Below are positions 1 to 16,237 of a stretch of 17,315 bases of DNA, in pieces. Position 1 is the first letter of the stretch, and each line of letters starts with the position of its first letter. Origin of the DNA: an uncultured delta proteobacterium (GTDB taxonomy: Bacteria; Myxococcota_A; Polyangia; Polyangiales; B10-G4). The stretch is from positions 1 through 17,315 of the forward strand of contig CAVSGI010000013.1 in assembly GCA_963727445.1 (NCBI GenBank), read 5' to 3'. A program made the translations under genes and the position numbers. The notes beneath the pieces were generated by a model. The model did not search any database. It worked only from the letters and a program-made list of their open reading frames with translations, and had not been told where the DNA came from.

Positions 1-38
1 AACCGCACATCTCAATCCGTCCGTGGAGGTAACGAGGG

Positions 39-377
39 TTAGGTCATCGATATCCCATCCACTGAGTTCATGTGGAAGAGGGCGACGTAGCTTGGGTCGA
101 CCGTGTAGTACTGCAGGGCCAACCGCGCCGGGCGCTCTCGCGTCGCATCCGCTATGAAAGCACCCAGGGGGTCTCGGACATCGATGGATGCCGTCGGCCA
201 GGTTCCTGCGGTGAGCAAAGTGCCGGCCTCGGTAATGATGTAGTCCAACAGGTGTCCAAGGCCTCGCTGTGCGTAGGCTGCGTCTGGAAGTGCGTCCACA
301 TCGTCTACCGGCGCACCGTCGTACCTGCCAACTGTGGTGTAGTACTCTGCTGGAGGCGGCTCCGGATCGCTCACCAT
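39..377 (-). CDS. hypothetical small acidic protein (112 aa), last gene of the minus-strand cluster
   Basis: Six-frame ORF with a protein-like composition (Asp/Glu-rich, no Arg/Pro bias typical of wrong-frame GC-rich ORFs). Its ATG at 377 overlaps the stop of the upstream lipoprotein gene (371-373) by 7 nt, suggesting co-transcription. Lies in a lower-GC segment. No recognisable domain. Confidence 0.4.
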   Translation of the reverse strand: MVSDPEPPPAEYYTTVGRYDGAPVDDVDALPDAAYAQRGLGHLLDYIITEAGTLLTAGTWPTASIDVRDPLGAFIADATRERPARLALQYYTVDPSYVALFHMNSVDGISMT

Positions 378-1552
378 TGCCGCGTAACGGTCAAATGTGG
401 TGAATCCACCTCCGGCAAGCTCAAAGGCGGAGCGAGCTGGTCGAGGGAGCGATCGAACGCTTGGATCTCCTGGCGTAGATAGTCTCGTGCCTCCCTGAAA
501 TCATCGACAGCGAGACCAAAACGATCCGCGAACTGGCTAGCTGTGTCCGACGACCACTCGGTTTCGTTCCACAGTTCAGTGAGTCGCTTCCTCACACTGT
601 CGAAGTTTGTATCGACGAGAATGGCCTCCGTGGATTGGAAGGTCTCCTCATTCGCGAGCGCGGATGGCTGGACGCCGGACTCTCGGTAGACATCGATGGC
701 CGCGCGCGCGCGAGAAGAGAGCGGTGGTGCAGTGCAGAGCGCCGTCGACTGAGAAGACGCACCGAGCAAGGCGTCGTACAGGCCATCCTCCCCCCCGACG
801 AGCAGATGGACCGCACTCGCGCGGGACTGAAGGGGCGCTGAGAATGCCATCGTCGCGGCGGTCCGCGACGTCGCGTGCTCCGAGAAGTAGGCGTCAGCGA
901 GGGCGAGTTCGTTGTTGGCCGCCGACGTACCAGCTTCCTTTGCGAGTTCAAATGCCTCGACGATGGCCATCGAAAGTGAACGACCAAGCGACTCATCGCT
1001 TGTGCCAGCTGGGTCGGTCAACTCTGCATCAGTACATGTCCCGGCACCACCCAGCCCGCCCGCCATGTGAAGCTCAGTCGTCGCGGTCTCCACGGCCATT
1101 CGTGCTTCGTCCATGGCCAAGCGTTGAAGCGCTGCATTGGTGGCGGTGCTTTGGGCTGGGACCTCCCATTGTATGGTCTCGAGCACCACAGGCTCGGAGA
1201 CAATCCCGGCCATCTCCATCAACAGTTGTGCGGTACAGATGTGGCGATAGGCAAGGCAATGTGCGGCTGTACAGGCCGATGTTCCCGGACAATAGGGATT
1301 GAGGGGGTCGGCCAGGTAGGTTTCGCCTAGACGGCATTCCTTGTCGACGTCACTGATTATGTCCGCGGGGTCAACGTTGCGAACCTCTCCTGTTGTGAGT
1401 TCGATGTAGCGTACGGCTTGTCGCCGACGAAGCTGCTCGAAGCCAGGCGCTTTGGATTCTCGCAGAGAGAGATCGTTCGTCGGTCCGCATGAGAGGAGCG
1501 CGCAACCACTGGTGAGCGCAACGAACGCTAGTACTCTCTTTCGCATGGTCAT
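371..1552 (-). CDS. hypothetical secreted lipoprotein (Ala/Ser/Thr-rich, about 393 aa)
   Basis: ORF 371-1576. The internal start MTMRKRVLAFVALTSGCALLSC (ATG at 1552-1550) gives a signal peptide plus lipobox and overlaps the upstream gene stop (1551-1549) as ATGA. GC is lower (about 58%) than the rest of the window. No known domain recognised. Confidence 0.55.
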   Translation of the reverse strand: MTMRKRVLAFVALTSGCALLSCGPTNDLSLRESKAPGFEQLRRRQAVRYIELTTGEVRNVDPADIISDVDKECRLGETYLADPLNPYCPGTSACTAAHCLAYRHICTAQLLMEMAGIVSEPVVLETIQWEVPAQSTATNAALQRLAMDEARMAVETATTELHMAGGLGGAGTCTDAELTDPAGTSDESLGRSLSMAIVEAFELAKEAGTSAANNELALADAYFSEHATSRTAATMAFSAPLQSRASAVHLLVGGEDGLYDALLGASSQSTALCTAPPLSSRARAAIDVYRESGVQPSALANEETFQSTEAILVDTNFDSVRKRLTELWNETEWSSDTASQFADRFGLAVDDFREARDYLRQEIQAFDRSLDQLAPPLSLPEVDSPHLTVTRQW

Positions 1553-2763
1553 CGGACTTCTCCTGAACGCGCACACCGCACTGTGAAGAACTGCTCTAGG
1601 TGGGGATCGACCTGTCGCCGGCTAACGTGAAAGTAGGCTTCGATGGCCCCTGAACGGGGCGACCCGCGCACCATGAACTCGCCAAACGTGGTGGGCCCGG
1701 TCGGATCCATCAGCGAAGCGGGATCGGAGTAATAGGACGCGCCATATACGTCCGACACGCGGTCCAAACCGCCTCCGACCATCAGGTCGACGCCGTAATA
1801 GCTTCTGACCCCCGGGAGTCCGTCAATGGCGAAGGGAATCTCCTCGACCGAAGGCGTGTAGCCGCAGGGGAACGCTGGCAGTGCCGTGCAGTCAAAGGCT
1901 GTGCCCTCCCAGGGATAGGGTTGGGCTCGGGGCGCGGGGCCTCGAGCAGCCTTCTCCCACTCTGCCTCGGTGGGAAGTCGACGCCCATCCCATTCGCAGA
2001 AGGCAATCGTCTGGGGTCGACTCAATCCCTGGACCGGATAGTTGCCACGAGTTGGATCGGCGAGAGACGTCGCGCCGGGTGAGTACGCGGGCAAGGAACA
2101 AACGCCGGAATCGACACACTGCTGATACCTGGCATTCGACACGGGAAACCTGTCGATGTAGTAGGCGGACAAGATAACTTCTGCGACCGGCTGCGCATCA
2201 TCGAACATCTCGTCGCCGCGCACGAACGGGCCGCTCGGAATGCAGAGCTCTTCTGCTTCGGCAGGGCTGGTGCGACGCGATGTCCCGCAAGGATCGACGC
2301 ACATCTCCACGCCCCAGGAGCAATCCGCCTGACACTCACGATGGCTCTCCTCATTTGGTCCGCACCCAGAGGGATTTGTTTCCATATCCCCGGGCCGACA
2401 CTCACCGTCCGGAGCAACCTCTTCCCAAGCGCCCCACTCACAGGACGATGAGCACGTCCGAACTTGCTCCCCGCAGAGCTCACTCGTTTCTGATTCGGTC
2501 GCGCCCGCTTCGCACTCTCCCTCATTCATGCAGCCGCCCGGCATCTGCCATCGACCATCGTCCCCGCAGAGCTGCTCCGCCTCTCCACACATCCCACAGA
2601 GCACACGCTGGATGGTCCCGGGAGCACAGGGGGGTAGCGCGTCAGGCGTGCTCACATCTGCCGCCGTGGTCGAGTCGGCGGCATCCGACATGCTCGAGTC
2701 CGGCAACGCGTGCGAACCGTCACCACAAGCAGTCAGCGCCGCGAGGAAGACGAGCGCACTCAT
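1549..2763 (-). CDS. lipoprotein with an N-terminal Cys-rich region and a C-terminal FGE-sulfatase (SUMF1 / formylglycine-generating-enzyme family) domain, probably non-catalytic
   Basis: MSALVFLAALTACGDGS is a signal peptide with a lipobox (start 2763, ATGA overlap with the upstream stop at 2760-2762). A Cys-rich segment (several CxxC/CGxC) follows. The C-terminal ~250 aa carry FGE-sulfatase hallmarks: RLPTEAEWEKAARG and a terminal MVRGSPRS...FTVRCA block (cf. RVxRGGSW...GFRC). The expected CxxxxC catalytic pair next to the RGGS block is not present. Confidence 0.8.
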   Translation of the reverse strand: MSALVFLAALTACGDGSHALPDSSMSDAADSTTAADVSTPDALPPCAPGTIQRVLCGMCGEAEQLCGDDGRWQMPGGCMNEGECEAGATESETSELCGEQVRTCSSSCEWGAWEEVAPDGECRPGDMETNPSGCGPNEESHRECQADCSWGVEMCVDPCGTSRRTSPAEAEELCIPSGPFVRGDEMFDDAQPVAEVILSAYYIDRFPVSNARYQQCVDSGVCSLPAYSPGATSLADPTRGNYPVQGLSRPQTIAFCEWDGRRLPTEAEWEKAARGPAPRAQPYPWEGTAFDCTALPAFPCGYTPSVEEIPFAIDGLPGVRSYYGVDLMVGGGLDRVSDVYGASYYSDPASLMDPTGPTTFGEFMVRGSPRSGAIEAYFHVSRRQVDPHLEQFFTVRCARSGEVR

Positions 2764-4067
2764 CGCTTCCTCCACCAAAGCAGCAGGAACAGCGCGAGCG
2801 TCGGCAACAGCGACAGCCCCGCTCGACCGCTCGCCGAGCATCCGGATGAAGCCGGCGGTCGACAGACCAGCTCGGCATCGACGTCACCGCATACGAGCCC
2901 TACGGGGCAGTCGGTATCATCAGCACATCCTCGCGTGCAGGTAGCTCGACCATTGCCATCGTCGAGGCAGAGATCCGACACACACTCATCTGCGGTCTCA
3001 CACGCCTCGCCGAAGACACCGCCATCGGGCATGCACACATCCCCGGCACAATGAGTCCGCGCTGGGCAATCTGAGTCACTGGCGCAATCGGCCGCGCAGT
3101 AGCCGCCTTCGGTGCAGAGCCCAGATGCACAACCATCGGCAGAGTCACATGGATCGCCGAATCCAGCACCGACGCGGGTGCAGTGGCCGAACGCACATGA
3201 GGACCCTCCGGAACAGTCGGCATCTGTCATGCACTCGGGAGAACCGAGCTGGCGCACGCAGGATCCTTCCTCGCACACCTCATCCGCCGCACAGATGCGG
3301 CCACCGCAACCGTCGACGCATCCATCGGCAGAACACGCCATCCCCGACGGACAACCCTCGACAGCGCATGCACTGGCCGGGTAGAGGAAGCATGCTCCCG
3401 CGATATCATCCGACGACAGCACGCGAGCAGTCGGGCCACGGTAAAGCGGGTACATCGTCGTTTCAGCAAACCCTTCGTCGGTCGAGCACAGAGGTGCGCC
3501 GTCTGCACCGTCCGGCTCGCAGGGATGCATCAGCCCCAGGAGGTGACCCAGCTCGTGGGTCAGAACCGCTGTGAGATCGCGTGGGTCATCGGGTCCCGCC
3601 CCACCATCCTCTCGCCATTCGTAGTCTGCGGCGTTCAGATAGACGTCCGCTTCGACGATGCGCCACTGCCCATCCGAATCCTGCTCATACAGGACGTCGG
3701 TTGTCGCCGCGCCATCGGCAGCGAATCCATGGGAGGACCAATTGGCAAAGATCCACTGAACGGTGTTGTATCCGTCGTTCGGCTCGACCTCGCGGGAGGA
3801 GATGCCCCCATAGCGGATGACGGCCGTCGAGCAGGAAACCTGCCCCCAAGTTTCGCGGGCCTGACCGAGCGCTCGCTCAACGTCCACCGTGGAGACGCCC
3901 GGAACGCTGGCTGGAAAATGGCGTAGCTCCGGGGGGTCCGACCACCCAACGGCCTGATCGTCCGGGATCTCAGCCAGATCGGCGGCCGTCCGATACGCAG
4001 CAGCCGAATTCGGTGTCGCAAGACCGACGACAACGAGGAAAGCGGCTATCCAGGGCAGCCTGCTCAT
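2760..4067 (-). CDS. secreted matrixin-like (metzincin, M10-like) zinc metalloprotease with a Cys-rich C-terminal region and a MYXO-CTERM-type sorting tail
   Basis: N-terminal signal peptide MSRLPWIAAFLVVVGLATPNSAAA. Zinc-binding motif HELGHLLGLMH (HExxHxxGxxH) followed by a Met-turn TMYP. Then about 170 aa with many CxxGxC cysteine pairs. The C-terminus GCSASGRAGLSLLPTLALFLLLWWRKR* is a Cys/Gly motif plus a hydrophobic helix plus basic residues, which is the MYXO-CTERM pattern. The ATG at 4067 overlaps the upstream stop as ATGA. Confidence 0.85.
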   Translation of the reverse strand: MSRLPWIAAFLVVVGLATPNSAAAYRTAADLAEIPDDQAVGWSDPPELRHFPASVPGVSTVDVERALGQARETWGQVSCSTAVIRYGGISSREVEPNDGYNTVQWIFANWSSHGFAADGAATTDVLYEQDSDGQWRIVEADVYLNAADYEWREDGGAGPDDPRDLTAVLTHELGHLLGLMHPCEPDGADGAPLCSTDEGFAETTMYPLYRGPTARVLSSDDIAGACFLYPASACAVEGCPSGMACSADGCVDGCGGRICAADEVCEEGSCVRQLGSPECMTDADCSGGSSCAFGHCTRVGAGFGDPCDSADGCASGLCTEGGYCAADCASDSDCPARTHCAGDVCMPDGGVFGEACETADECVSDLCLDDGNGRATCTRGCADDTDCPVGLVCGDVDAELVCRPPASSGCSASGRAGLSLLPTLALFLLLWWRKR

Positions 4068-4609
4068 CGCGCAGCGTCCAGAAGTTGCGTCACACGGGAC
4101 AGAGTCGATCGAGGCCTGTGATGAAGCGCGTCCGCAGGGGGAAGGGCCTGGAGCACAGGACCCGCGTCGCTCTCGACCATGTGCCAGACCTCACCGCCTG
4201 CACTCGTCGAGACGAACCCACCCCCATCAAGCCGGGTCAGGAACACAACGACGTTGGAGCCAACGGAGAATCGCTGGCCGTGGCTTAGAACGCGGAGCTG
4301 ATCCCCATAGCGACCGCCGGGGACCCAGAAATGCACGATGTCGCCCATCTCATGGTCTGTGGATATGGGGTGAGTGACACGGAGTTCGACGCGTGTGTGG
4401 ATTCCCGGGGTGTTGTTGGGGCCTGTTGCCTGAGCAACCGTTTCAGCAACTACCCCCGCGATGACGACGTCGGCATTTTCAACGAGGACCGCGAGCTCGT
4501 CCCGACGGTCTCTGAGGGAAACTCGACTCGTGCGAGATGCATCGTTGCACCCGATGGCGACGAGCAAAAGCAGCCCGACCGCGAGGAGGTCGCGAAGTCG
4601 ACAGTCCAT
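4064..4609 (-). CDS. hypothetical small lipoprotein (181 aa), translationally coupled to the metalloprotease gene
   Basis: MDCRLRDLLAVGLLLLVAIGCNDAS is a signal peptide with a lipobox cysteine. Its stop at 4064-4066 overlaps the ATG of the protease gene (4067-4065). No known domain recognised. Confidence 0.6.
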   Translation of the reverse strand: MDCRLRDLLAVGLLLLVAIGCNDASRTSRVSLRDRRDELAVLVENADVVIAGVVAETVAQATGPNNTPGIHTRVELRVTHPISTDHEMGDIVHFWVPGGRYGDQLRVLSHGQRFSVGSNVVVFLTRLDGGGFVSTSAGGEVWHMVESDAGPVLQALPPADALHHRPRSTLSRVTQLLDAAR

Positions 4610-4676
4610 GGACCGTCGACCATCGCACCGCTTCGGAAAACCTCTCCTATCAGATCATGTAGGTAGTCACGTGTGG

Positions 4677-4706
4677 GCGTATCACGTTCCGCACGTGCCA
4701 CCGCTC
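4677..4706. promoter_or_regulatory. pair of CACGTG hexamers (plus a CACGTT) in the promoter region of the 181-aa lipoprotein / metalloprotease sub-operon
   Basis: In the only sizeable gap inside the minus-strand cluster (4610-4707), the sequence reads gtCACGTGtgggcgtatCACGTTccgCACGTGcc. CACGTG is also the core of the 22-bp palindrome at 8740-8761. Confidence 0.3.
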
Positions 4707-4707
4707 G

Positions 4708-6936
4708 CTACGGCACTGGGTCGTTCATGCCCACGACGAAGAACTGATCGTCACTGGTCGTCTCGGGCAGGTTGATGTGCCCGACGAGCACGCCGGTGAC
4801 GTAGTAGCCGGCCAGGCCGATGTCGCCGGTGGCGTTGATGTCGATGCCGTGGACGAAACCCGCGTCGCGGCGTAGCTCGCCACTCTGCAACAGCGCCACG
4901 TAGTCGAGCGCACCGGCGGAGGTGTAACGGGCGACGAAGCCGTGATCGCGGCCCGGGGTGGTTGCCCCGTCGTAGGCGTAGTCGCCATTGCTGCCGCCGA
5001 CGACGATGGGCGCGCCACTCGAGGTGAGGACCAGGTCCCGGGGCTCGACGGTGCCGGTGCCCATCGTGGCGGGAATGGACCAGTTCAGGGTGCCATCATA
5101 CGCGTAGCTCTCGAGGAGCGCGTCGCTGGTTGCGACGTAGATGTTGGCGCTGGTCACCTCGACGCCGGCTGGGACGTCCACACCGGAGGTGCTGAGCTGG
5201 ATTTGTTGCTGGAAGGTGCCGCCGGCTGAGTAGCGGACGACGAAGCCGTCGCGTCCGTCGGGCGTCAGCGCTCCTCCACCGAAATCGGTCATCCCGTCGA
5301 AGTATCCGGCAACGAAGACCTGGCCGGCCGCATTTCGCGCGACATGCAGCGGCGTACCCGGCAGTCGCCAGCTCGCCACGTGAGCGCCGCTCGAATCGTA
5401 GTGTGCGACGAAGCCAAAGTCCGTTCCGCCAGTGGCGCGGTTGCCGCCACCGAAGTCGAAGTCGCCGGCGAGTATGCCAACAGCGAAGACGCCCCCGGCC
5501 CCGTCGGGGACGACCCCACGAACGTCGTCGGTGGAGCTCGCGGTGTGTAGGCGCTTGGCCCAAAGGGGCGTGCCCGTCGAATTGAGCTTGGCCACGATGC
5601 CGTCGACGCCCGTGGTGCTCGTCACCGTGATCCCGGCCGACCCACCGAAGCGGATGGACTGGCTGAACTTGCCACCCCAGAACATGTTGCCGCTCGAATC
5701 CAGCTCGAAGGCGTACTGCTGGATGAGCCCCGTGGACGTCGTCCGATCGATGTCGGTTCGAGTGACGTAGGTCCCACCATCATCCCATTCGATGATGTGA
5801 TGGTGGCTACTGCCCGTGAAGGTCTCGCTTCCGGCGCCGCTGGGATCGCTGTACGAGCCGCGCATGGCCACCGCAACGAGGACCGATCCGGCCGAGGTGA
5901 CGCCGACCCGCTCGTACTCGGCCTGCGGATGGGTGTCCGCGGTGCGATACCTTCGCGCCCAGGTCACCTCCGGCCGGCAGATGCTGGCGCCGCAGGTGCC
6001 GCCGACGATGCATCGGAATCCACAGGACCCGCAGTTTGCGTCGTCGGAGCTGGTGTCGGTGCAGGCGCCTGAACAGTCCGCGGTACCCGCGGGGCAGGCG
6101 CAGGTACTCGAAGCACACGTCGCGCCCGTCGAGCACGCCATGTCGCAACCGCCGCAGTGCGCTGGATCGGTCGATGTGTCTGCACAGGTGCTGCCGCAGA
6201 GTGTGGTCCCCGCACCGCATTCGCACGTTCCCGCGACGCACGTCTCGGTGGTGAAGCACCCCACCCGACATCCGCCGCAATGGGAGCTGTTGGAGGTCGT
6301 GTCCACACAACCAGCGGTTCCACAGTCCGTCAGGCCCGTGGGACACGTGCAGGCGCCGGCAACGCATTCATACATCCCCGCGCAGGTCGCGGAAGGCCCA
6401 TCCACCGTGCCATCGCAATCGTTGTCGACGCCGTCACAGGCCTCCGAGGCGCCCGGATGGACGCCAGGATCCGAATCGTCACAGTCCGTGCCGCCGCAGA
6501 CGACCGCCGGGTCCCCGTCGGCGTCACCATCGAGCGGAACGTATTGGCAGAGCCCGCGCGAGGCGTCGCAGCGTACGAACACCCGACACGGATCGGTGGT
6601 TGGGCACTCGGCGTCGGACGTACAGGGGGTTCCCGCGACGCATCCGGCCGACAAGTCGCAGACCTCGCTCGGCGCACAGAGGGTGTCATCGAGCGCGTGG
6701 ACGCACGCCCCGCTCTCGCAGCTGTCGTTGGTGCAATCGTTTCCATCGTCGCAGTCGAGGGTGAGGCAGGGATCGGTCGTACCACTGTCCATTGCGTCTG
6801 GGCCGGAGTCGGCAGAGGCCCCGGAATCCGCATCGAGCGACGCGTCCGCGTCGAGCGCTGCATCGACTGCGGCGTCGTCGCCGCCACATCCAGCGATGGC
6901 GAACAAGCACAGAGCCGCGACTCGTGTCACCGACAT
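4708..6936 (-). CDS. large Cys-rich lipoprotein: Myxococcus-type Cys repeat, MopE-like putative metal-binding motif, HCGGC-type Cys repeats, and a C-terminal SBBP beta-propeller
   Basis: ORF 4708-6972. The likely start MSVTRVAALCLFAIAGCGG (ATG 6936) gives a lipoprotein signal. Motifs present: DCDDGNDCTNDSCESGAC (Myxococcus Cys-rich repeat); DGDADGDPAVVCGGTDCDDSDPGVHPGASEACDGVDNDCDGTVDG (PF11617-like MopE motif); five ~35-aa repeats with HCGGCxxxC / NCGSCGxxC. The C-terminal ~420 aa carry repeated DFGGG...GFV(A/V)(H/R)Y(D/S)SxG blocks typical of SBBP beta-propeller repeats. Confidence 0.8.
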   Translation of the reverse strand: MSVTRVAALCLFAIAGCGGDDAAVDAALDADASLDADSGASADSGPDAMDSGTTDPCLTLDCDDGNDCTNDSCESGACVHALDDTLCAPSEVCDLSAGCVAGTPCTSDAECPTTDPCRVFVRCDASRGLCQYVPLDGDADGDPAVVCGGTDCDDSDPGVHPGASEACDGVDNDCDGTVDGPSATCAGMYECVAGACTCPTGLTDCGTAGCVDTTSNSSHCGGCRVGCFTTETCVAGTCECGAGTTLCGSTCADTSTDPAHCGGCDMACSTGATCASSTCACPAGTADCSGACTDTSSDDANCGSCGFRCIVGGTCGASICRPEVTWARRYRTADTHPQAEYERVGVTSAGSVLVAVAMRGSYSDPSGAGSETFTGSSHHHIIEWDDGGTYVTRTDIDRTTSTGLIQQYAFELDSSGNMFWGGKFSQSIRFGGSAGITVTSTTGVDGIVAKLNSTGTPLWAKRLHTASSTDDVRGVVPDGAGGVFAVGILAGDFDFGGGNRATGGTDFGFVAHYDSSGAHVASWRLPGTPLHVARNAAGQVFVAGYFDGMTDFGGGALTPDGRDGFVVRYSAGGTFQQQIQLSTSGVDVPAGVEVTSANIYVATSDALLESYAYDGTLNWSIPATMGTGTVEPRDLVLTSSGAPIVVGGSNGDYAYDGATTPGRDHGFVARYTSAGALDYVALLQSGELRRDAGFVHGIDINATGDIGLAGYYVTGVLVGHINLPETTSDDQFFVVGMNDPVP

Positions 6937-7973
6937 CCGCTGCTCCCATAACAGATCTGCCCCGCTCGACACGGCAGGCCGGAGCTACCGCAGACGCACG
7001 TGCCTGCGCGACAGCAATCCGAGGTCCACGAGCAGGAGTTCCCACACATCCCGCAATCGTCGGCCGACGATGTGGTGTCGACGCAACTCCCCGAGCAGCA
7101 CGAGAGGCCCGACGCGCACACGTTTCCGCACGCGCCGCAGTTTGCGTCGTCCATCTGCAGGTTCACCTCACATCCATCGCCCCGGGCCCCATTGCAATCC
7201 TCGTAGCCCATCCGGCACGAGCCGAAGACGCAGGTCCCGGAAACGCAGGTGCGGAAGGTCCCGGAGATGAGACAGTCGACGTTGGCGTCCTCGTCAGTCG
7301 CTCCGTCGCAGTCGTTGTCCGCCCCATCGCAGATCTCCGTTGCGCCCGGATAGGTGTCCGCGTTCGTGTCGTCGCAATCCGTCGCCGGTCGGTCTCCCCC
7401 CGTGCACGTGGCATCCAGATCCACGAAGCCGTCGTCGTCACGGTCCTCCGCCGGATCGTTGCCTCCGCCCGAGCTGCAGTCGTCGTCGAGCCCGTTGCAG
7501 ATCTCGTCTGCACCCGCATAGACATCGGGATTCGAGTCATCGCAGTCCGCGCCACCGCAGGCAGCAGCGGGATCTCCGTCCCCGTCACCATCCATCGGGG
7601 GGTACTCGCAGAGACGGGTAGCTTCGTTGCAATGATCGAGGGTGCAGCTGTCTCCATCCGTACAGTCGGAGTCGGTCGCGCAGATGCGAGGCCCCGTGTC
7701 GACACGGCGTGTGTCCGGCGCGGCATCCGTGGACGAGGCATCGGCATCGCCAGCGGTCGCGTCGGTCACGCTGGAGTCCGGGACGCTCGCGTCCATGTCA
7801 CCACAGAGACAGGGCGAGAACGTGCCTTCCGACGTGCACTGCTGGGTTCCTGTGGTTCTGCCGGGACACGGACACTCGAGAGTCCGTCCTTCTACACAAG
7901 CCGCGCTCCCGTCGCCGCACGCAGCGGCCAGCGCGGGGATGACGAACACGAGAACGACTCGCGCTTCAGTCAT
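6927..7973 (-). CDS. Cys-rich lipoprotein with three MopE-like putative metal-binding motifs and C-terminal CGxCGNxC repeats
   Basis: MTEARVVLVFVIPALAAACGDGS is a lipoprotein signal. Three copies of the DGDGDGDP..CGG.DCDD..P...GA.EICDG.DNDCDG..DE pattern are present. The C-terminal repeats NCGACGNVCASGLSCCSGSC / DCGMCGNSCSWTSDCC are paralogous to repeats in the downstream 754-aa protein. The ATG at 7973 overlaps the LuxR gene stop (8-nt ATGACTGA overlap). Confidence 0.75.
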   Translation of the reverse strand: MTEARVVLVFVIPALAAACGDGSAACVEGRTLECPCPGRTTGTQQCTSEGTFSPCLCGDMDASVPDSSVTDATAGDADASSTDAAPDTRRVDTGPRICATDSDCTDGDSCTLDHCNEATRLCEYPPMDGDGDGDPAAACGGADCDDSNPDVYAGADEICNGLDDDCSSGGGNDPAEDRDDDGFVDLDATCTGGDRPATDCDDTNADTYPGATEICDGADNDCDGATDEDANVDCLISGTFRTCVSGTCVFGSCRMGYEDCNGARGDGCEVNLQMDDANCGACGNVCASGLSCCSGSCVDTTSSADDCGMCGNSCSWTSDCCRAGTCVCGSSGLPCRAGQICYGSSGCR

Positions 7974-8628
7974 GGATCTCCATGTTGTAGAACAGCCACG
8001 TCAGCTCCTCTCGCCGCTTCACGCCGACGCGCTCGCGCAGCTGACTGAAGTGGAAGTTCTTCGTGGAGAGCTTCACGCCGAAGACGTGCTCCATGTCCGC
8101 GTAGGGGATCTCGCGGTCGAGGAGATCGATGTACTCGAGCTCTGTCGGGGTCAGGCCGTACCGTTGCCCGAACAGCTCGACCCTGGTTCGCCGCCTGATC
8201 GGGTCCTTGGCGCCTAGCACCGAGGCGTATCGGACGGCACGCCAGGTCGCGTCGACTCCGGTCTCGTGGGAGATGCATCTCGCGCGCAGGCGCAGGGCTT
8301 GCCGCCGAGTCTCGCGATCATCCTCGTGAACCACGGCCGCGCTGATCAGGTGCCGATTTAGCCGCCGGAGCGCGGCGAGTGGCTCCAAGCACGATTCGGG
8401 CGAGCCATTTTGTCGAACCACGAGACCACGAACGTCTTCGGGCGACTCGTGGAGGATTCTGGTGGCCTCCGCCGCTTTTGCGCGACGCAATCGCAGACGG
8501 TTATCCGAAAGGTCGTCGCATTCTTCGCCGAACCCATCCCCCACCAGAAGGAGGAGATGGCGCGCGACGGCACGGTGGGTCCCAGATCCGCCCTCGGGCG
8601 GGTCCGCCTCATCAATAACTCCCGACAC
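7966..8628 (-). CDS. LuxR/GerE-family transcriptional regulator (C-terminal HTH; N-terminal ~150 aa of unknown type)
   Basis: C-terminal LTPTELEYIDLLDREIPYADMEHVFGVKLSTKNFHFSQLRERVGVKRREEL matches the LuxR-type HTH (LTxRExEVL..L..G.S...IA..L.IS..TVK.H...I..KLGV..R.EL). It is the first gene of the minus-strand cluster, preceded by a ~640-bp intergenic region rich in palindromes. Confidence 0.8.
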   Translation of the reverse strand: MSGVIDEADPPEGGSGTHRAVARHLLLLVGDGFGEECDDLSDNRLRLRRAKAAEATRILHESPEDVRGLVVRQNGSPESCLEPLAALRRLNRHLISAAVVHEDDRETRRQALRLRARCISHETGVDATWRAVRYASVLGAKDPIRRRTRVELFGQRYGLTPTELEYIDLLDREIPYADMEHVFGVKLSTKNFHFSQLRERVGVKRREELTWLFYNMEIHD

Positions 8629-8739
8629 TGCCCTTCCCCTTCACTCAGAGACCCGAGGGCCTCTCCCCTTCAAACCAAGCAATCGTGTCGAGCCATGGAG
8701 AGTGCCAGAAATCGAACGGAGTGGATCACGGGCCACGAA

Positions 8740-8761
8740 GATTGGGCCACGTGGCCCAATC
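8740..8761. promoter_or_regulatory. 22-bp perfect palindrome GATTGGGCCACGTGGCCCAATC (candidate operator) about 110 bp upstream of the LuxR gene start
   Basis: The sequence equals its own reverse complement, centred on CACGTG. An extra GGGCCACG half-site copy lies 15 bp to the left (8729-8736). Located in the promoter region of the minus-strand operon. Confidence 0.5.
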
Positions 8762-8842
8762 TCACACGCGCTTCGGGAATTTGCTTGACGCCGCGTTTTC
8801 GCAGCGCGGAGTCACTCTCCCTCCGCAACGCGAAGCGTGCGT

Positions 8843-8861
8843 GTCACCCCGTGAGGGTGAC
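8843..8861. other. hairpin / inverted repeat GTCACCC-cgtga-GGGTGAC
   Basis: Perfect 7-bp stem with a 5-nt loop in the intergenic region. It shares the GTCAC/GTGAC core with the downstream 51-bp tandem repeats. Confidence 0.4.
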
Positions 8862-9078
8862 GCACCACCGCAGGAGATCGGCGACGCAGGAGATCCGAAC
8901 CAGGTTGGCGACCTCGCCTCCAGCGCGCGACGGATCCCGAAACGATCTCTGGGCGATGAGTCGCGCTCGCTGCGATGCCCATCCCGGCAAGCTGTACTTC
9001 GTCACGCGACGATGCAGGCGGCGGCACTTCGTGCTCGCGCCTGACCTGGCGGGCATCGTGGCACCTCCCCCAAGCCGT

Positions 9079-9230
9079 CCGGTCACATCGCCCGACGTCA
9101 CGCCCAACCCTGCCAGTTGTGACCGCTATCCGGTCACATCGCCGACGTCACGCCCAACCCTGCCAGTTGTGACCGCTATCCGGTCACATCGGCCGACGTC
9201 ACGCCCAACGCTCCGAGTTGTGACCGACTC
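9079..9230. repeat. three tandem direct repeats of about 51 bp, each containing an 8-bp inverted repeat CGGTCACA...(30 bp)...TGTGACCG
   Basis: Units at 9079-9129, 9130-9179 and 9180-9230. Units 1 and 2 are near-identical (1-nt indel); unit 3 has several substitutions. No unique spacers lie between units. They sit between the tRNA-Leu 3' end and the LuxR promoter region. Confidence 0.8.
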
Positions 9231-9288
9231 GACCCGATGAGGTCAGCCGCCCCAAAACCAAAGCGCCCCGGCTCATCGCCAGGGCGTC

Positions 9289-9374
<86 letters not shown>

Positions 9375-9625
9375 GTGGGGAGCGCTCAGATAGGCCGTGC
9401 TCGGGCTGCTGTCAATGTCTGCATGCGTTGGCGTGGGGAGTGCTGGGCTGCGGGGGGCGGGCTTGGCTCTCGGTGTGATTCCGCGGGGTTGGTCCGGGAG
9501 GGGGGGCCGAAAAAAATGCATAGTCCTGCAGGGGATGCGGACCGGGCCTCGTGGGAAAGGGGGAGTTCTCTTCTGATTTCGAGGGATTGAGTGCGGTATG
9601 CGCATTGCACCGACCGGCCCTCGAT

Positions 9626-10306
9626 ATGGTCCGTCCTGTAGAGAAGCGTGCGCTTGGCTTGTGGGGGGCTGCTCGCCCCCCTCACGGCCCCCCCGACCCC
9701 AAGCGGGCCGGCTTCACGCTCACCGAAATGATGATGGTGGTGACCATCATCGCCATCACGGCAGGGTTGGCGGCGCCCGCGATGTACAACGCCTTCGCCG
9801 AACGGCGCACCGCGACCGCACCCATCGACTTCATCCGGATGGTGCGGCGGGGTCGCTCCGAGGCCATGGCCTACGGTCGCGCCCACCTCATCCGCTTCTC
9901 CTCCAGCTCGCCCGGGAGCTTCATGCTCTACCGCGGGGTGAGCTCGAGCTGCGTCGGCAACGACTGGACGGCGATCATCCCGACGAGCTCCACCAACCCC
10001 TGCGGCGAGCCCGGCAGCGACAACCAGATGTGCATCGAAGAGATGCGCCTCGGCGGCTCGTACTACACCACCGGCTCCCTCTCGGTGCACGCGACCGAGT
10101 CGAGCGCGGCCAGCGACGTCGACCTCTGCTTCGAGCCCGACGGCCGGACCCTCTTTCGCAAGTCCACGAGCGCCACGCTCACCTCGGACAACACCATCAA
10201 CGGCGGCCTGATCTTCAACTTCCGCCGTTACGACAGCGGCGCGCCCATCGGCGTCGTCCGCCAGGTCGTCGTCCCCCTGGGCGGCGACGCGAGGTTGATG
10301 CGATGA
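9626..10306 (+). CDS. type IV pilus minor pilin / pseudopilin, FimU/FimT/GspH-like (prepilin-type N-terminal methylation domain)
   Basis: The prepilin motif KRAG|FTLTEMMMVVTIIAITAGLAAP has Gly at -1, Phe at +1, Glu at +5 and a hydrophobic helix. It is the first gene of the minor-pilin operon. The exact start is ambiguous: ATG 9551 and ATG 9626 give unusually long leaders, and TTG 9659 is also possible. The stop overlaps the next gene start as ATGA. Confidence 0.65.
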   Translation: MVRPVEKRALGLWGAARPPHGPPDPKRAGFTLTEMMMVVTIIAITAGLAAPAMYNAFAERRTATAPIDFIRMVRRGRSEAMAYGRAHLIRFSSSSPGSFMLYRGVSSSCVGNDWTAIIPTSSTNPCGEPGSDNQMCIEEMRLGGSYYTTGSLSVHATESSAASDVDLCFEPDGRTLFRKSTSATLTSDNTINGGLIFNFRRYDSGAPIGVVRQVVVPLGGDARLMR

Positions 10307-10881
10307 CGCGCCGCCGCCGCACGCAGGAACAGGGCTACACCCTCATCGAGGTCATGATGGCGGTCGCGATCATGACCGTCGGCTCGGTGGGCATCTTCTC
10401 GCTCCACACGGCCACCACCAACGGCAACCGCCTCGCGCGCGAGACCTCGACGGCGGTGGACCTCTCTCGCCTCTACCTCGAGCGCGCCCGGCGCGACGCC
10501 CTGATGTGGAACGCGTCGGGCAACGTCACCTCCACCGAGCTCCTCACGAACGTCGCCGTCTCGGGCCTGGGCGACTGGTTCATCCCCAGCCCCACCATCG
10601 GCTCCTACGCCTTCGACTACCAGGGCAGAGACACCAGCACCACCTCCGAGATGTACTACTGCGCCAACATCCGCGTCAGCTGGATCATCGGGCAGGACGC
10701 GGCGCGCGTGGACAGCCGCGTGTGGTGGCGACGCTCGGGCGCTTCGAACCCGCCGCCCTCGTCCTGGGACTGCGACACCGACCCGGCGACCATCACCTCC
10801 GAGCTGGCAGACACCAACCCCGCTCCCCGCATTCACGCGGTCTATGCGTCCACCGTCGTTCGTTGGACGAGGTTGAACTGA
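10303..10881 (+). CDS. PilV-like type IV pilus minor pilin (192 aa)
   Basis: MTRRRRTQEQG|YTLIEVMMAVAIMTVGSVGIFSL is a prepilin leader plus an N-terminal helix with Glu at +5, typical of PilV. The ATG at 10303 overlaps the upstream stop. Its own stop (10879-10881) overlaps the next ATG (10881). Confidence 0.75.
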   Translation: MTRRRRTQEQGYTLIEVMMAVAIMTVGSVGIFSLHTATTNGNRLARETSTAVDLSRLYLERARRDALMWNASGNVTSTELLTNVAVSGLGDWFIPSPTIGSYAFDYQGRDTSTTSEMYYCANIRVSWIIGQDAARVDSRVWWRRSGASNPPPSSWDCDTDPATITSELADTNPAPRIHAVYASTVVRWTRLN

Positions 10882-12093
10882 TGACCCGACGCGAGCACAT
10901 CCGCCGCCGGCGGCACGCAAAGAACGCCGGCTTCACCCTGGTCGAGCTGATGGTGGCGCTCGCCGCCGGCGCCATGGCCATCTCCAGCATCTACTTCGTG
11001 AGCGCCTCCTCCAGCCGGCACTTCCACGAGCAGCAGCGCATCGCGCAGAACCAGATGACCCTGCGCACCGCGATGGCCCAGCTCCGCCGCGACTTCTGCG
11101 CGCGCCGGCTACCTGGGCACGCCCAACACGGCCAAGGAAGACGCCTGCGGAACGACGCCGTCCACCTTCAACTTCGGCGCGATCCTGATCGACGACAGCG
11201 CCACCACCTGCGCGCCCAGCGTCACCTGTGGCACGTCGGTCCTGGACGAGCAGACCATCAACGGCGTCCAGGCAGACACGGTCCAGCTCACCGGCAACTT
11301 CGTGACCGGCGACGCCTACAAGGCCAGCGGCACTCAGAGCACCACCCAGCTCATGTTCTCCAAGACCTGGCAGATGTTTCGCCGGTCCTTCGGCGCCGAC
11401 GACCTCGGCGAGTACGACACGGCGCTCTTCGAGTCGGCCTTCGCGCCGGGCCGCTACGTGCAGATCAGCCACGACGCCCGGGGCTACAAGTTCTACGCCG
11501 AGATCGAGTCGGTCGACGGTGGCTCGTCCACCCCGCCCACCGTCACCATCAGCCGCCCCCTCCCCGGCTGCTTCGGCCGCTGTGAAGGATTCGGCTGCAC
11601 CGTCTCCCCCATCAGCCGCATCGAATACGCCGTGCTCGACATGGAGACCGCCGGCAGCCTCAGCGCCCTCGACGTCGGCTCGAGCTCCCCCCTCGCGGGC
11701 GTGCGCGGACCGGTCCTCGTTCGCCGCGAGCTCGACTTCGCCTCCTCCCCGACGCCGGTCGCCAACAGCGAACGCGTGGTCGCCGAGTACGTCGCGAACT
11801 TCGACGTCGACGTCATCAGCAACACCAACGTCTCCTCGGGCACCCCGACCCTGGCGCTGCAAGACGACGCGAGCGCCGCGAGCCTGACCTCGTCCAACCC
11901 CCATCGCGTGCGGAGCGCCGTCATCAGCCTCTCCATCCGCACCCCCGCCGAGGATCCGCGCTTCCCCTTCGTCTCCGGCTCCGGCCTCACCCGCTACGAG
12001 CTCGACCCCGACATCGAAGGCGCCGCCCGCGTCCGCACCAGCACCATCGAGGTGCTCCTCTCCAACGTCGCCGCGAGGGACATCCGCCCATGA
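10881..12093 (+). CDS. PilW-like large minor pilin, reading frame interrupted (frame 0 to frame +1 switch at about 11098-11105)
   Basis: The N-terminus MTRREHIRRRRHAKNAG|FTLVELMVALAAGAMAISSIYFV is a prepilin-type motif in frame 0, readable to ...AMAQLRRDFC near 11097. After that, frame 0 becomes Arg-rich nonsense. Frame 1 is open from 11059 and reads a protein-like ARAGYLGTPNTAKEDACGTT... through to the stop at 12093, joining ORF 11302-12093. The switch maps to a GCGCGCGC tract. A repaired product would be about 403 aa. Confidence 0.65.
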
Positions 12094-12776
12094 AGAAGAC
12101 CAGCCGAAGGAAGCTGCGCAGCAAGTGGCGCAGGCAGAGCGACCGCGAGGGCGCGGCGATGCTCATCGTGATGCTGCTGCTCCTCACCACCACCTCACTC
12201 GCGGTGTTCGCCGTGCAGGCGACCAGCTACGAGGTTCGCGCTTCGGGCTTCGCCCGCCAGTCGATGCAGTCCGAATACGTCGCGGAGGCGGGGCTCACCT
12301 CGGTCCTCACCGTCGTCGACAAGCTCGGGCCCCAGGCCATCCTCTACGCCATTCAGCAGCAGCAGGCGAACCCCACCACCTACCCGCCCCCGGTGATGTC
12401 GCCCTTCGAGCCGGAGCTCGCGACCAGCGCCACCAGCACCCGACCTGCCGAGGCCTATCGCATGCAGAGCGAGGACCTCTCGAGCTTCACCACCACCGGC
12501 ACCGAGCCGGTGGACCGCGCCGCCATCGGCGCGCGCCAGACCTACGAGCCTTCCTTCGCCGTCGACATCTACGACCACCACATCACGTCGCGTCCGATCC
12601 CTGGCTACCCGGTGGGCAGCGGCGGCTTGTCTTTCTTCCACGCCATCTACACGTCTCGCGGCCGCATGCGGCTCGACGGTGGTGACACCGCCGTGAGCGG
12701 CCCGGACCCCCGCCAGTACCACGAGACCGCCAGCGCCGCGCGCGCGTACGGCGTCTCAGGACCGTTCGCACGATGA
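12090..12776 (+). CDS. PilX-like type IV pilus minor pilin (PilX N-terminal domain)
   Basis: MKKTSRRKLRSKWRRQSDREGAAMLIVMLLLLTTTSLAVFAVQATSYE resembles the PilX_N pattern (basic leader, ..G(A/S)xLIVxLLLL..hydrophobic..). Position 4 in a fimU-pilVWX-pilY1 order. The ATG at 12090 overlaps the upstream TGA. Confidence 0.7.
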   Translation: MKKTSRRKLRSKWRRQSDREGAAMLIVMLLLLTTTSLAVFAVQATSYEVRASGFARQSMQSEYVAEAGLTSVLTVVDKLGPQAILYAIQQQQANPTTYPPPVMSPFEPELATSATSTRPAEAYRMQSEDLSSFTTTGTEPVDRAAIGARQTYEPSFAVDIYDHHITSRPIPGYPVGSGGLSFFHAIYTSRGRMRLDGGDTAVSGPDPRQYHETASAARAYGVSGPFAR

Positions 12777-15700
12777 AGCAGCGCCCCAGAATCCGAAGGA
12801 GTCTCGAGATGGATCGCTTGCGTCGCCTCATGCTCGCCGCAGCAGGCCTGGCCCTCGGGCTGGCTCTCGCTGCCGGCACGGCAAGCTCGGCAGAAGCACA
12901 ATCGGCGCCGGACCTCAGGAACATTCGTCCGATGGTCACGCTCCTCATCGACACCTCGGGATCGATGGAGCGCACGGCTGGCTGCACCTGCGTGACGGCG
13001 TCGTGCCGCGAGTGTCTGCCGGACTGCAGCGTGCCCGACTACAACAAGTGGTCGGTCCTCCTCGAGGCCTTCACCGGCACCTTCGACACCTTCTCCTGCA
13101 CCGAGGTCGCGCGCAGCACCTACGCCGGCGACTACGACGCGGGCTACTTCATCCCCCACTACGAGCCGCCCGTCGGCATCTCCACCCAGCAGTCCAACGG
13201 CATCATGGACGTCTACGTGGACCGCATCCGCTTCGCCCTGATGACCTTCGACGGCGTGAGCACCCTGACCACCCAGAACACCCTCGTCCCCGACTCCGCC
13301 TGGACCGTGGCCTTCGAGAACAACAGCGCCGGCGTGCTCGGGATGTACTCCTACGGTGGGTCGAAGCTCTTCAATTTCCTCGGGTGTGCGACCGACTACC
13401 GCCTCGACAACGGCGCCCGTAACGACTCCGACGACGGGAGCGGCAACTACGTCCCCGGCAATCTCATCTCGATGGGGAACAGCAGCGACGACCACACCGT
13501 CGTCAATGCCGCCATCCAGAACGCACTGCTCGGAACCCGCCCCTTCGGCCCCACTCCGATCGCGGGGATGCTCTCCGACTACGAGTACTTCCTCGCCAAC
13601 GACCCGGACCTCCAGCTGCCGACGACGGTCGGCGGCGCTGGCGACGCGTACGCCAACTGCCGCCCCCGCTTCGCCATCCTGGTGACCGACGGCTATCCGA
13701 ACGCCGACATGCGGGGCCTGCCGTACCAGTGCGATGCGTCGGGTTACACCTGCCCCTACGACCTGCCCCAGGACACGGCGGCTCGCCTCTGCGACTACGA
13801 CTCCCTCGACGGCGCGTGCACGGGTGACGTCGACGGCGTCTTCGTCGTCGGTTTCAACGTCTCGGACAGCACCGCCGTGACCACCCTCGACGGCATCGCG
13901 GCCGCGGGCGGGACCACGGAGGCCTACTACGCCACCGACCGCGACACGCTGGTCGCGGCCCTCTCGACCGCCCTCGACTCCGCGGCGCCCGGCGCCACCA
14001 GCCGTACGGTGCCCGCCTTCGTGTCGAGCGCTTCGGTGACGAGCAGCTCGGCGAAATACCAGTTCAACGCCGGCTTCAAGGTCGGCGGCATCAGCGGCAC
14101 CGATCCGTGGGCCGGCGTCATCGAGCGCAAGCGCTACCAGTGCTGCGCCGACTCCGTCTGCTCCGGGCCGGGCACCCTGGTCGTCGAGCAGGCCGTCTCC
14201 TCCGCCGACAACGACACCTTCCACGAGGTGCTCACCGCGCGCACCACCGATCGAAACCTCTACACCGTCCTGCCCACCACCAACGGCAACGAGACCGGGT
14301 GGCTGACCAACACCGCGGACGCCGACATCCCCAGCACGCGCGTCCCGGGCACCAGCGTCACCGCAGTCACCAACGGCCAGACCGGCGGCTCGCCCGACGA
14401 GGAGAACCTCGACGTCACCATCCTCGAGACCAGCACCGGCGGCGGCAGCGTCACCTACACCAACCTAGCGGCCGCCGACCTCGCGGAGGCCGACGCAGTC
14501 CTCGACTGGGTCTACGCCCGTGGCAGCGCGGCGTCGGGTCGACTCGCCAACCGACTTGGCGACATCTACCACTCCTCCCCCCTCGTGGTGAGCGCACCGC
14601 GCATCGACCGCACCGACGAGGCCTTCAACCTCTTCCGCCGCCAGGGCGACGTGGTGGCTCGGCCGACGGTCCTCTACGTGGGCACCAACGACGGCATCCT
14701 CCACGCGTTCGCGGTCGAAGAGCACGACGTCAACACCGTCTGTGGCCAGATCCGCGAGAAGTCGACCGCCTGTACCCACACGGCCTACAACTCCACCAAC
14801 CCCATCACGGCAGGCGAAGAGCTGTGGGGCTTCGTACCGCCGCTGCTCGTGCCCAAGTTGAAGGACGCGAGCGTCTCTCACCAGTGGATGGTGGACGGCT
14901 CGCCCGTCGTGAAGGACATGTACTACGCGCGCGTCCTCGGTGACGCGCCCCTGGCCAGCGAGTACCACACGGTGCTGGTGGCGGGCCTGCGCAACGGCGG
15001 CTCCGGGGTCTACGCTCTCGACGTGACCGACCCCATCACCGAGGCCTCCGGTTCGACCGCCGGCAGCCACGTCTTTCAGCCGCCCAAGTTCCTGTGGCAG
15101 TTCAGCGACTCCGACATGGGGGAGACCTACGGCACCCCGGCGCTGGCCGAGGTCCTGGTGAACGAGTCGGGCACCCTGGTCGCGCGCGCGGTCGCGATCA
15201 TCCCTGGCGGCAAGGGTTCCGCCACCGGCGACCCCTCCGCCTCGCTGAGCACCAACCAGCTCTCGGTCAGCGACGTCACCGGCGCCCGCACCGAGCGCAG
15301 CGAGTACGACACCGTCGGCCGCTCCCTCTATGTCGTCGACGTCGCGACCGGCCGCCTGCTTCGAAAGTTCGACAGCACCATCCTCACCGCGCCCATGACC
15401 GGCGCGGTCGCTGCGTACCCGGGGGACGTGGGCCAGGTCGCAGACCGCGCCTTCATGACGGACGCGGACGGCGTGATCTGGCGCCTCGACATGTCGGACC
15501 CCGATCCGGCCAACTGGAGCGTCATCGCCTTCCACGACATCTTCCACGACCAGGCCAACGTCTTCAGTCAGCCCGCCTACAACGCGCCGATCCTCTCCGT
15601 CGACGATCAGGGCGACCTGGTGGTGCTCCAGGCGACGGGTGACATCGACATCCTCGATGGCACCGACTTCAACCGCGTCGTCTCCCTCACCGAGAACCTG

Positions 15701-16237
15701 ACCTTCGACAGCGACGGTCTCATCACCGGTGTCGCCGGGACGCTCAACTGGGAGATCGACCTGGCCTCCTCCGAGCAGGTGACCGGCCCCCTGGCCCTCT
15801 TCAACGGGCGCGTCTACTTCGGCTCCTTCAAGTCGATCACCTCGACCACCGACGCCTGCCAGTTCGGCGAGAGCCGCCTGTGGGGTGTGGACTACGTGGC
15901 GAACGACGGCAGCGGCGGTCCGGCCGACGGCATCGAGTCCGTGGCGGGCTCGGGGGTGATCGACGCGACCTACGTCGGCCCCTACACCAACGAGATCATC
16001 ATGGGTGTCGCCGTGACCCAGCAGCCGAACTGCTTCCTCGGGATATCGGAGATCGACACCTACGTGGGCAACCGCTTCCGTGTCACGCAACAGGGCGGCG
16101 GCGGCTTCCAACTGGTCGCCCAGGTCGGCGGCGATGGCGCGCTCAGCACCGGGGCGAGCCTCGCGCAGATCACCCGGAGCCTGCCGGCGCCCACGCCCTA
16201 CACCGAGATCCTCGGCATGGCGGGCGCCATCGAGTAA
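12773..16237 (+). CDS. pilY1: PilY1-like type IV pilus tip adhesin (1154 aa): N-terminal vWA domain with MIDAS, C-terminal PilY1/PilC beta-propeller
   Basis: Signal peptide (MDRLRRLMLAAAGLALGLALAAGTASSAEA). vWA motifs are VTLLIDTSGSM (DxSxS MIDAS), RFALMTFDG and FAILVTDGYPN. The C-terminal region contains VLYVGTNDGILHAFAV, the characteristic (L)Y(F/V)GxNDGxLHAF signature of PilY1/PilC C-terminal domains. It immediately follows the minor-pilin genes, and its ATG at 12773 overlaps the PilX-like gene stop (alternative start at 12809). Confidence 0.85.
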   Translation: MKQRPRIRRSLEMDRLRRLMLAAAGLALGLALAAGTASSAEAQSAPDLRNIRPMVTLLIDTSGSMERTAGCTCVTASCRECLPDCSVPDYNKWSVLLEAFTGTFDTFSCTEVARSTYAGDYDAGYFIPHYEPPVGISTQQSNGIMDVYVDRIRFALMTFDGVSTLTTQNTLVPDSAWTVAFENNSAGVLGMYSYGGSKLFNFLGCATDYRLDNGARNDSDDGSGNYVPGNLISMGNSSDDHTVVNAAIQNALLGTRPFGPTPIAGMLSDYEYFLANDPDLQLPTTVGGAGDAYANCRPRFAILVTDGYPNADMRGLPYQCDASGYTCPYDLPQDTAARLCDYDSLDGACTGDVDGVFVVGFNVSDSTAVTTLDGIAAAGGTTEAYYATDRDTLVAALSTALDSAAPGATSRTVPAFVSSASVTSSSAKYQFNAGFKVGGISGTDPWAGVIERKRYQCCADSVCSGPGTLVVEQAVSSADNDTFHEVLTARTTDRNLYTVLPTTNGNETGWLTNTADADIPSTRVPGTSVTAVTNGQTGGSPDEENLDVTILETSTGGGSVTYTNLAAADLAEADAVLDWVYARGSAASGRLANRLGDIYHSSPLVVSAPRIDRTDEAFNLFRRQGDVVARPTVLYVGTNDGILHAFAVEEHDVNTVCGQIREKSTACTHTAYNSTNPITAGEELWGFVPPLLVPKLKDASVSHQWMVDGSPVVKDMYYARVLGDAPLASEYHTVLVAGLRNGGSGVYALDVTDPITEASGSTAGSHVFQPPKFLWQFSDSDMGETYGTPALAEVLVNESGTLVARAVAIIPGGKGSATGDPSASLSTNQLSVSDVTGARTERSEYDTVGRSLYVVDVATGRLLRKFDSTILTAPMTGAVAAYPGDVGQVADRAFMTDADGVIWRLDMSDPDPANWSVIAFHDIFHDQANVFSQPAYNAPILSVDDQGDLVVLQATGDIDILDGTDFNRVVSLTENLTFDSDGLITGVAGTLNWEIDLASSEQVTGPLALFNGRVYFGSFKSITSTTDACQFGESRLWGVDYVANDGSGGPADGIESVAGSGVIDATYVGPYTNEIIMGVAVTQQPNCFLGISEIDTYVGNRFRVTQQGGGGFQLVAQVGGDGALSTGASLAQITRSLPAPTPYTEILGMAGAIE

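Follow-up and report, generated by a model that had tools for sequence, protein, structure and literature searches.

A three-unit tandem repeat array beside tRNA-Leu(CAG) in a Polyangiales-like myxobacterium and its putative origin as a minisatellite

Introduction

Several described bacterial systems combine tandem repetition with palindromic sequence. The minisatellites of the VNTR/MIRU type consist of head-to-tail repeats of 40-100 bp, present in few copies in intergenic, non-coding DNA, and the near-identity of their neighbouring copies indicates ongoing slippage or unequal recombination. REP elements and the BIME clusters formed by them are based on an extragenic, hairpin-forming palindromic unit (an imperfect palindrome of 20-40 nt) that is found downstream of terminators and may be clustered in tandem. 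The lux and tra boxes of LuxR-family regulators are perfect inverted repeats of about 20 bp that may occur in multiple copies upstream of a GerE-type gene. The antitoxin arrays of type III toxin-antitoxin (TA) systems, such as ToxI, CptI and TenpI, are spacerless direct repeats of about 35-50 nt ahead of an ORF on the same strand. Finally, in CRISPR loci a palindromic repeat recurs at regular spacing.

Here, an array of three abutting repeat units is described from a window of 17,315 nucleotides, the term window being used throughout for the whole stretch of DNA that was analyzed. The array resembles each of the above systems in some respect, and in form it is closest to VNTR/MIRU-type minisatellites and REP/BIME clusters. 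It shares with minisatellites the direct repetition of a unit of about 10-100 bp (period 50) and the non-coding nature of the repeated DNA, and with REP/BIME elements the hairpin potential, in the form of a perfect palindrome of 21 nt and a 46-nt unit with 8-bp inverted repeats. However, the mycobacterial MIRUs are dispersed over about 40 loci, often inside operons, and are polymorphic in copy number between strains, as is characteristic of minisatellites, while the present array is represented by one locus in one strain. REPs differ from it in occurring in tens to hundreds of copies per genome, in usually alternating in orientation within BIMEs and in being associated with RAYT transposases. 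The array is thus a new instance of a feature type that is already known and would not surprise a specialist.

Structure of the repeat array

Direct reading of the sequence and Tandem Repeats Finder (9078-9226, period 50, 2.9 copies, 93% matches, score 263) both confirmed the three tandem repeats of about 51 bp that an earlier note had placed at 9079-9230, and a separate repeat search of the window recovered the same three copies. The units abut head to tail, with no strand assigned, and read from the sequence they measure 51, 50 and 51 nt. Unit 1 (9079-9129, CCGGTCACATCGCCCGACGTCACGCCCAACCCTGCCAGTTGTGACCGCTAT) and unit 2 (9130-9179) differ solely by a single 1-nt indel, namely an extra C in unit 1, whereas unit 3 (9180-9230) is a diverged copy, as had been proposed, with 91.5% identity to unit 2 over a core of 47 columns; it lacks the CTAT linker and its final 4-5 nt (ACTC) are different. 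The internal motif GACGTCAC is present once per unit, at 9094, 9144 and 9195. What is repeated is the entire 50 bp, including the linker and the positions outside the motifs, and the recurrence of a 50-mer with at most three mismatches had an expectation of 0.00 in shuffled sequences. A further copy of the unit's internal box (CGTCACGC) was seen at 8999-9006, on the left side of the array at a distance of 73 nt; an 8-mer match of this kind could be due to chance.

The period of 50 bp and the regularly spaced palindrome are reminiscent of CRISPR. However, the intervals of 29-30 nt that would have to be spacers are the same sequence, with no difference between units 1 and 2 and about 90% identity in unit 3. 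There are two full palindromes, and no cas genes were found. The view that these directly abutting units are not a CRISPR array therefore holds. Iterons of plasmids and phages (17-22 bp) were also considered and rejected, as the unit measures 50 bp, the region has a GC content of 65-67% and no rep gene is present. In a comparison by eye with consensus sequences, none of integron attC, DnaA box, parS and dif fitted the array.

With regard to origin, we give about an even chance to the explanation that a hairpin-bearing segment has given rise to a young minisatellite, specific to this lineage and situated at the border of an acquired accessory block. A segment of about 50 bp, already containing the 8-bp inverted repeat, would have given rise to head-to-tail copies, with slipped-strand mispairing or unequal recombination as the most likely mechanism. 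Unit 3 would represent the first duplication, and the second would be very recent, because units 1 and 2 still differ by one indel only. Duplication is preferred over selection for a motif because these two units are near-identical over their full length, linker included.

Every unit carries the arms CGGTCACA-N29/30-TGTGACCG, at 9080-87/9118-25, 9131-38/9168-75 and 9181-88/9219-26. The 8-bp inverted repeat reported earlier for each unit is accordingly present, but the constant spacer of 30 nt is not, since the arms are separated by 30, 29 and 30 nt in units 1, 2 and 3, respectively. Moreover, the long-spacer arrangement is just one of two registers, because the same arms form palindromes across the unit junctions. 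In this other register there are two identical, perfect palindromes of 21 bp, TGTGACCG-CTATC-CGGTCACA, whose arms flank a centre of 5 nt. They span the junctions of units 1 and 2 (9118-9138) and of units 2 and 3 (9168-9188), again without strand. As RNA, each would form a stem of 8 bp closed by a loop of 5 nt (-12 kcal/mol). The outermost arms remain as half-sites: CGGTCACA at 9080-9087 and TGTGACCG at 9219-9226, the left and right ends of the array, lack a partner on their outer sides, and the limits of the array coincide exactly with these outer arms. A perfect inverted repeat of at least 8 bp was obtained in 0.9% of shuffled 50-mers treated as tandem units (P = 0.009), a figure for which the three inverted repeats count as one observation because the units are copies of each other. 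The inverted repeat of the unit is thus unlikely to have arisen by chance, and the segment from which the array arose may have served as a functional hairpin or a binding site. In contrast, the GTCAC/GTGAC core that the array was said to have in common with a hairpin at 8843-8861, in the adjoining non-coding DNA, proved to be at chance level, since the window as a whole has 3.6 of these pentamers per kb (with four in the 450 bp to the left of the array).

The neighbouring regulatory gene and possible operator sites

The next gene on the minus strand (7966-8628) starts 450 nt from the array and encodes a near-orphan protein of 220 aa whose C-terminal part is a putative, divergent HTH of the LuxR/GerE type. 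The gene opens a series of seven ORFs, co-directional and for the most part overlapping (from 8628 down to 371), which includes two MopE/cysteine-rich proteins, an M10-like metalloprotease and a protein with an FGE-sulfatase domain. The array had been described as lying between tRNA-Leu and a LuxR gene. Its position is as described, while the assignment of the gene is more remote than the name implies. A search of 5.8 billion proteins with the 220-aa protein returned only the protein itself, no Pfam, NCBIfam or PADLOC assignment was obtained, and a direct match to Pfam GerE (PF00196) was lacking even at E up to 10. When 1.84 billion cluster representatives were scanned in full with phmmer, four relatives were obtained, three of which (P0124, P0125 and P0126; E = 2e-5 to 1e-4) are GerE-positive above the Pfam cutoff in the aligned C-terminal region, and for this reason the label LuxR is acceptable as remote homology. 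The AlphaFold model of the regulator, computed without an alignment, was unusable (pLDDT 40). Within the cluster, the adjacent cysteine-rich MopE/Stig1-like ORFs share internal repeats (6410-6552, 7303-7382 and 7471-7613) with 65-71% DNA identity, so domain repeats appear to have been duplicated both within and between the two genes.

GerE-family proteins bind inverted repeats as dimers, and the palindromes and half-sites of the array could accordingly be bound by a dimeric HTH regulator, most plausibly the neighbouring LuxR/GerE-type protein, serving as distal or titrating sites for the seven-gene cluster. This we consider unlikely, although several features speak for it, namely the perfect 8-bp arms with a 5-nt centre, the recurrence of the palindromes every 50 bp, the low probability of the inverted repeat under chance and the identity of the next gene on the same strand, a putative, divergent GerE-type regulator that leads a series of co-directional, overlapping ORFs. 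However, lux and tra boxes measure 18-20 bp, are close to the promoter and are repeated as the motif alone, while the array is 450-600 nt away from the start codon and the whole unit has been duplicated. The earlier proposal of three phased sites for a dimeric regulator overstated the independence of the sites for the latter reason, and a spacing of 50 bp corresponds to 4.8 helical turns, so that the sites would not be on one face of the helix. The array is also not conserved in any other genome. Furthermore, a perfect palindrome of 24 bp (AGATTGGGCCACGTGGCCCAATCT) is located at 8739-8762, about 110 nt upstream of the start of the LuxR-type ORF at 8628, and it is a stronger operator candidate than the array. 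The same non-coding stretch of 450 nt contains the hairpin at 8843-8861 and, adjoining it, an exact direct repeat of 11 bp (CGCAGGAGATC; 8869-8879 and 8885-8895, 16 bp apart).

The tRNA-Leu locus and its relatives

On the minus strand the order of features is tRNA-Leu with anticodon CAG (9289-9374), which passes the Rfam threshold, followed by its intrinsic terminator (9254-9286; a 9-bp stem with eight G-C pairs, then CTTTGGTTTT), a block of 23 nt (9231-9253), the array, 450 nt of non-coding DNA and the ORF 8628-7966. Because the intrinsic terminator stands in between, the array is downstream of the terminated tRNA transcript; it occupies the promoter-distal part of a non-coding stretch of 660 bp. 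To the right of tRNA-Leu lies a type IV minor-pilin/PilY1 operon. Composition changes abruptly at the tRNA: GC3 is 0.65-0.81 in the seven ORFs to the left of the array versus 0.88-0.94 in the pilin and PilY1 genes to the right (9551-16237). This sharp break suggests either acquisition or a different mode of evolution of the left block (1-9230).

According to its PilY1 homologues, the window belongs with marine Polyangiales-like Myxococcota. Four syntenic loci were compared, two with 73-74% PilY1 identity (L007 and L009) and two with 64-65% (L103 and L104). In all four, the pilin operon is preceded by tRNA-Leu(CAG) on the minus strand, and the array, which the earlier note had suggested looking for at orthologous tRNA-Leu loci, is missing from every one of them. 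The DNA downstream of the tRNA gene is different in each of the four. Synteny with the window in tblastx ends at 9232 for L009 and at 9285-9289 for L007. Base-level alignment showed that L009 has kept the tRNA-Leu terminator and shares the 23-nt block beyond it (GACCCGATGAGGTCAGCCGC..., minus strand) but nothing further to the left, and the edge of the array is thus at most 5 nt from the L009 homology breakpoint. Synteny and composition together place the array at the tRNA-proximal end of an accessory block that is lineage-specific and compositionally atypical, and the closeness of its edge to the breakpoint hints at a link with the recombination event that would have brought in this block.

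Two further observations concern the conserved side of the locus. CGATGAG, in the block past the T-run of the terminator (9233-9242), is complementary to CTCATCG in the loop and stem of the terminator (9273-9279), and with both sequences conserved in L009 the block may be able to pair alternatively with the terminator. In addition, a non-coding block, CCGAAAAAAATGCATAG...GATGCGGAC, is conserved between tRNA-Leu and the minor-pilin operon in the window (9507-9542), L007 (about 5774-5810) and L009 (about 3166-3205). Partial copies are found in L103 (about 439-475) and L104 (about 767-803), where only the half with the A-run and ATGCATAG recurs, together with TGCGGAC. The block is probably the promoter or a regulatory site of the pilin operon.

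The proximity of the tRNA gene had also led to the suggestion that the repeats are remnants of an attachment or recombination site. In a more explicit form, the array would be a remnant or terminal cluster of binding sites of a mobile or integrative element inserted downstream of tRNA-Leu, and the repeated arms would be bound by a recombinase or transposase at the end of the element. Circumstantial support comes from the breakpoint within 5 nt of the array, from the adjoining tRNA gene, a classic integration hotspot, from the neighbouring 9.2 kb with foreign-looking GC3 and near-orphan genes, and from the presence of different DNA at this site in all four relatives, as is seen for insertion-specific DNA next to tRNA genes. 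The palindrome might also be read as a 7-7-7 core resembling the core sites of tyrosine recombinases. Nevertheless, we regard this explanation as quite improbable. No integrase, transposase or recombinase domain was detected in the 9.2 kb, and no integrase domain in the window as a whole. Neither the tRNA 3' end nor the junction sequence is present a second time in the window, which contains 9227-9320 in a single copy. The breakpoint is 57 nt beyond the tRNA, past the terminator, rather than inside the tRNA, and the identity of units 1 and 2 over their full length points to recent duplication rather than to conserved binding sites. The outermost bases are not the 5'-TG...CA-3' of Tn7/Mu-type termini, and a Tn7-like end was rejected on this ground and because there are no tns genes nearby. 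The suggestion of an attachment site retains its positional argument, while the expected integrase and tRNA duplicate are missing from the window, beyond which the far border of the block is located.

The variable regions of the relatives have features of their own. At 2696-2750 of L009, about 120 nt beyond the orthologous tRNA-Leu, there is an unrelated tandem palindromic array (TTCCGCGGAA / GTTTCCGCGGAAA; period 14-15, 3.7 copies), and a gene for a weakly MarR-like HTH protein follows 377 nt later. The layout is that of the window, the sequence differs and the two regulators are unrelated. This second array between tRNA-Leu and an HTH gene may be counted in favour of operator sites, while the lack of relationship between the two regulators counts against them. 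It could also be taken to mean that the array is the terminal protein-binding module of an uncharacterized element or cassette that inserts past the tRNA-Leu(CAG) terminator in marine Polyangiales-like Myxococcota, each lineage having a cassette of its own whose tRNA-proximal end is formed by a particular tandem palindromic array and then a particular HTH regulator, as in the window and L009, and the arrays being cognate operator or recombination sites. We find this broader proposal very doubtful, and with two cases the parallel is indistinguishable from coincidence. In L007, an ORF of 293 aa in the variable region (2827-3708, minus strand) has a sub-threshold match to an IS200-like Y1 transposase (E = 0.0034), a family that includes the REP-associated RAYTs.

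Distribution of the repeat unit

The unit was sought in several collections. There was no further copy in the remainder of the 17-kb window, even with three mismatches allowed, and none in 62 kb of related loci. A three-motif pattern (GGTCACA-N3-8-GACGTCAC-N16-24-TGTGACC) gave three single matches in 185,579 species genomes, a collection that does not include the source genome, versus about four expected by chance; none is a relative of the unit, and one falls in a coding region of a Nannocystaceae MAG. The pattern had zero matches in 2.9 million viral contigs, where the palindrome with a free loop had three, all attributable to chance. BLASTN against plasmids and phages gave no match to the unit, and a composite six-frame peptide of the array had none among 5.8 billion proteins. 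Local alignments of the unit with its flanks and with the tRNA scored no better than those with shuffled flanks, so a derivation from these sequences was rejected. A search of the literature on myxobacterial REPs or tRNA-linked repeats yielded nothing relevant.

Matches to the three-motif pattern were more numerous in the JGI metagenomes, where 92 stretches were found. Ninety of these belong to one satellite of 43% GC and the remaining two represent a coding chance match, and a family of the unit was therefore rejected. The satellite matches are 50-52 nt long, not 43-44, and are located on contigs without long ORFs; the satellite is unrelated to the array and is probably eukaryotic host DNA. 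It is found on L011-L102 (Ga0209367, Ga0209781, Ga0209680, Ga0056114 and others) with the core ATGGTCACATGACCGATGACGTCACGTGACC..AAAGGTCAA..TTGTGACCCCAAT. This abundant family is itself repetitive on a scale of a few hundred bp, with copies of the core motif spaced some 130-200 bp apart in its consensus.

These results bear on the idea that the unit belongs to a family of REP/MITE-like palindromes dispersed in the source genome and was tandemly amplified at this locus, in the manner of BIME/MIRU clusters. The unit can indeed be described as a 46-nt element bounded by 8-bp inverted repeats, the array ends exactly at the arms, and both the size and the extragenic location downstream of a terminator are typical of REP-type elements. 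However, no second copy was detected in the window or the related loci, and none in the species genomes or JGI metagenomes (the source genome being outside both). Furthermore, no predicted protein overlaps such a sequence, and no RAYT/Y1 transposase is encoded in the window, Y1_Tnp having no match among its ten largest ORFs. We therefore rate a dispersed family as improbable.

Coding potential and RNA structure

The array is non-coding. A coding repeat was rejected because the unit lengths of 51, 50 and 51 nt shift the frame and no protein matches any frame, and GC3 across 9040-9310 gave no coding signal. As for transcription, no sigma-70-like promoter was found in 8300-9800, no sigma-54 promoter within three mismatches in the intergenic region that holds the array, and on inspection no site fitted the ECF-type AAC-N16/17-CGT spacing.

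The repeats had also been regarded as a possible small-RNA or structured-RNA element. Such an element could be a small RNA, a repeat RNA like the type III antitoxins or a stabilizing 5' leader, expressed from the minus strand. The region of 201 nt around the array does fold better than shuffled sequences on both strands, with z-scores of -3.2 on the minus strand (-93.9 kcal/mol) and -2.8 on the plus strand, and in form, a tandem array with units of about 50 nt is similar to the antitoxin arrays of the ToxI/CptI type. However, values of this kind on either strand are produced automatically by tandemly repeated inverted repeats, and the single units are not significantly structured, their z-scores ranging from -1.1 to -2.35. 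Only the tRNA passes the gathering threshold in Rfam 15; nothing was assigned to the array even at E up to 10, the best matches over it being miRNA models with 18 bits versus thresholds of 60-74. In addition, the array comes directly after an intrinsic terminator with no promoter-like site, and there are no homologues of it from which covariation could be derived. Type III antitoxin arrays immediately precede a gene for a ToxN-type endoribonuclease and are themselves flanked by a promoter on the upstream and a terminator on the downstream side, while the next ORF here is 450 nt away and encodes a helical HTH protein of putative GerE type with no ToxN/AbiQ-type or other toxin match in Pfam or PADLOC. 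A CsrB-like RNA was likewise discarded, given that a hand count of GGA on the minus strand was about at chance level. Taken together, a function as structured RNA is highly improbable.

Origin and significance of the array

Our preferred explanation remains a recent tandem duplication of a hairpin-bearing segment, and it is also favored because the array is missing from the relatives and from every collection searched (the source genome not being part of these) and because no signal of transcription or structure was obtained. The stretch of 660 bp constitutes the border between a conserved core, comprising tRNA-Leu, its terminator and the minor-pilin/PilY1 operon, and an atypical accessory block without counterpart in the relatives. 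What we infer from these features is how the duplication came about, that the array is young and that it has no dedicated function. The array as such is probably without selected function; at most, the hairpins or palindromes at the unit junctions may form a structural barrier that separates the tRNA gene from the LuxR-led cluster, or may be bound there incidentally by proteins.

For the biology of these bacteria, the array as such is of little importance: it adds a further lineage-specific tandem repeat to the intergenic DNA of a GC-rich myxobacterial genome and would be of use at most as a marker for strain typing. It does, however, mark to within a few bases the border between the conserved tRNA-Leu/pilin core and a variable accessory block, and the tRNA-Leu locus is therefore a candidate hotspot of gene acquisition in this clade. 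If the palindromes should be the operator of the neighbouring, divergent LuxR-type regulator, they would provide a handle on how the seven-gene cluster for secreted cysteine-rich, protease and FGE-sulfatase-like proteins is regulated.
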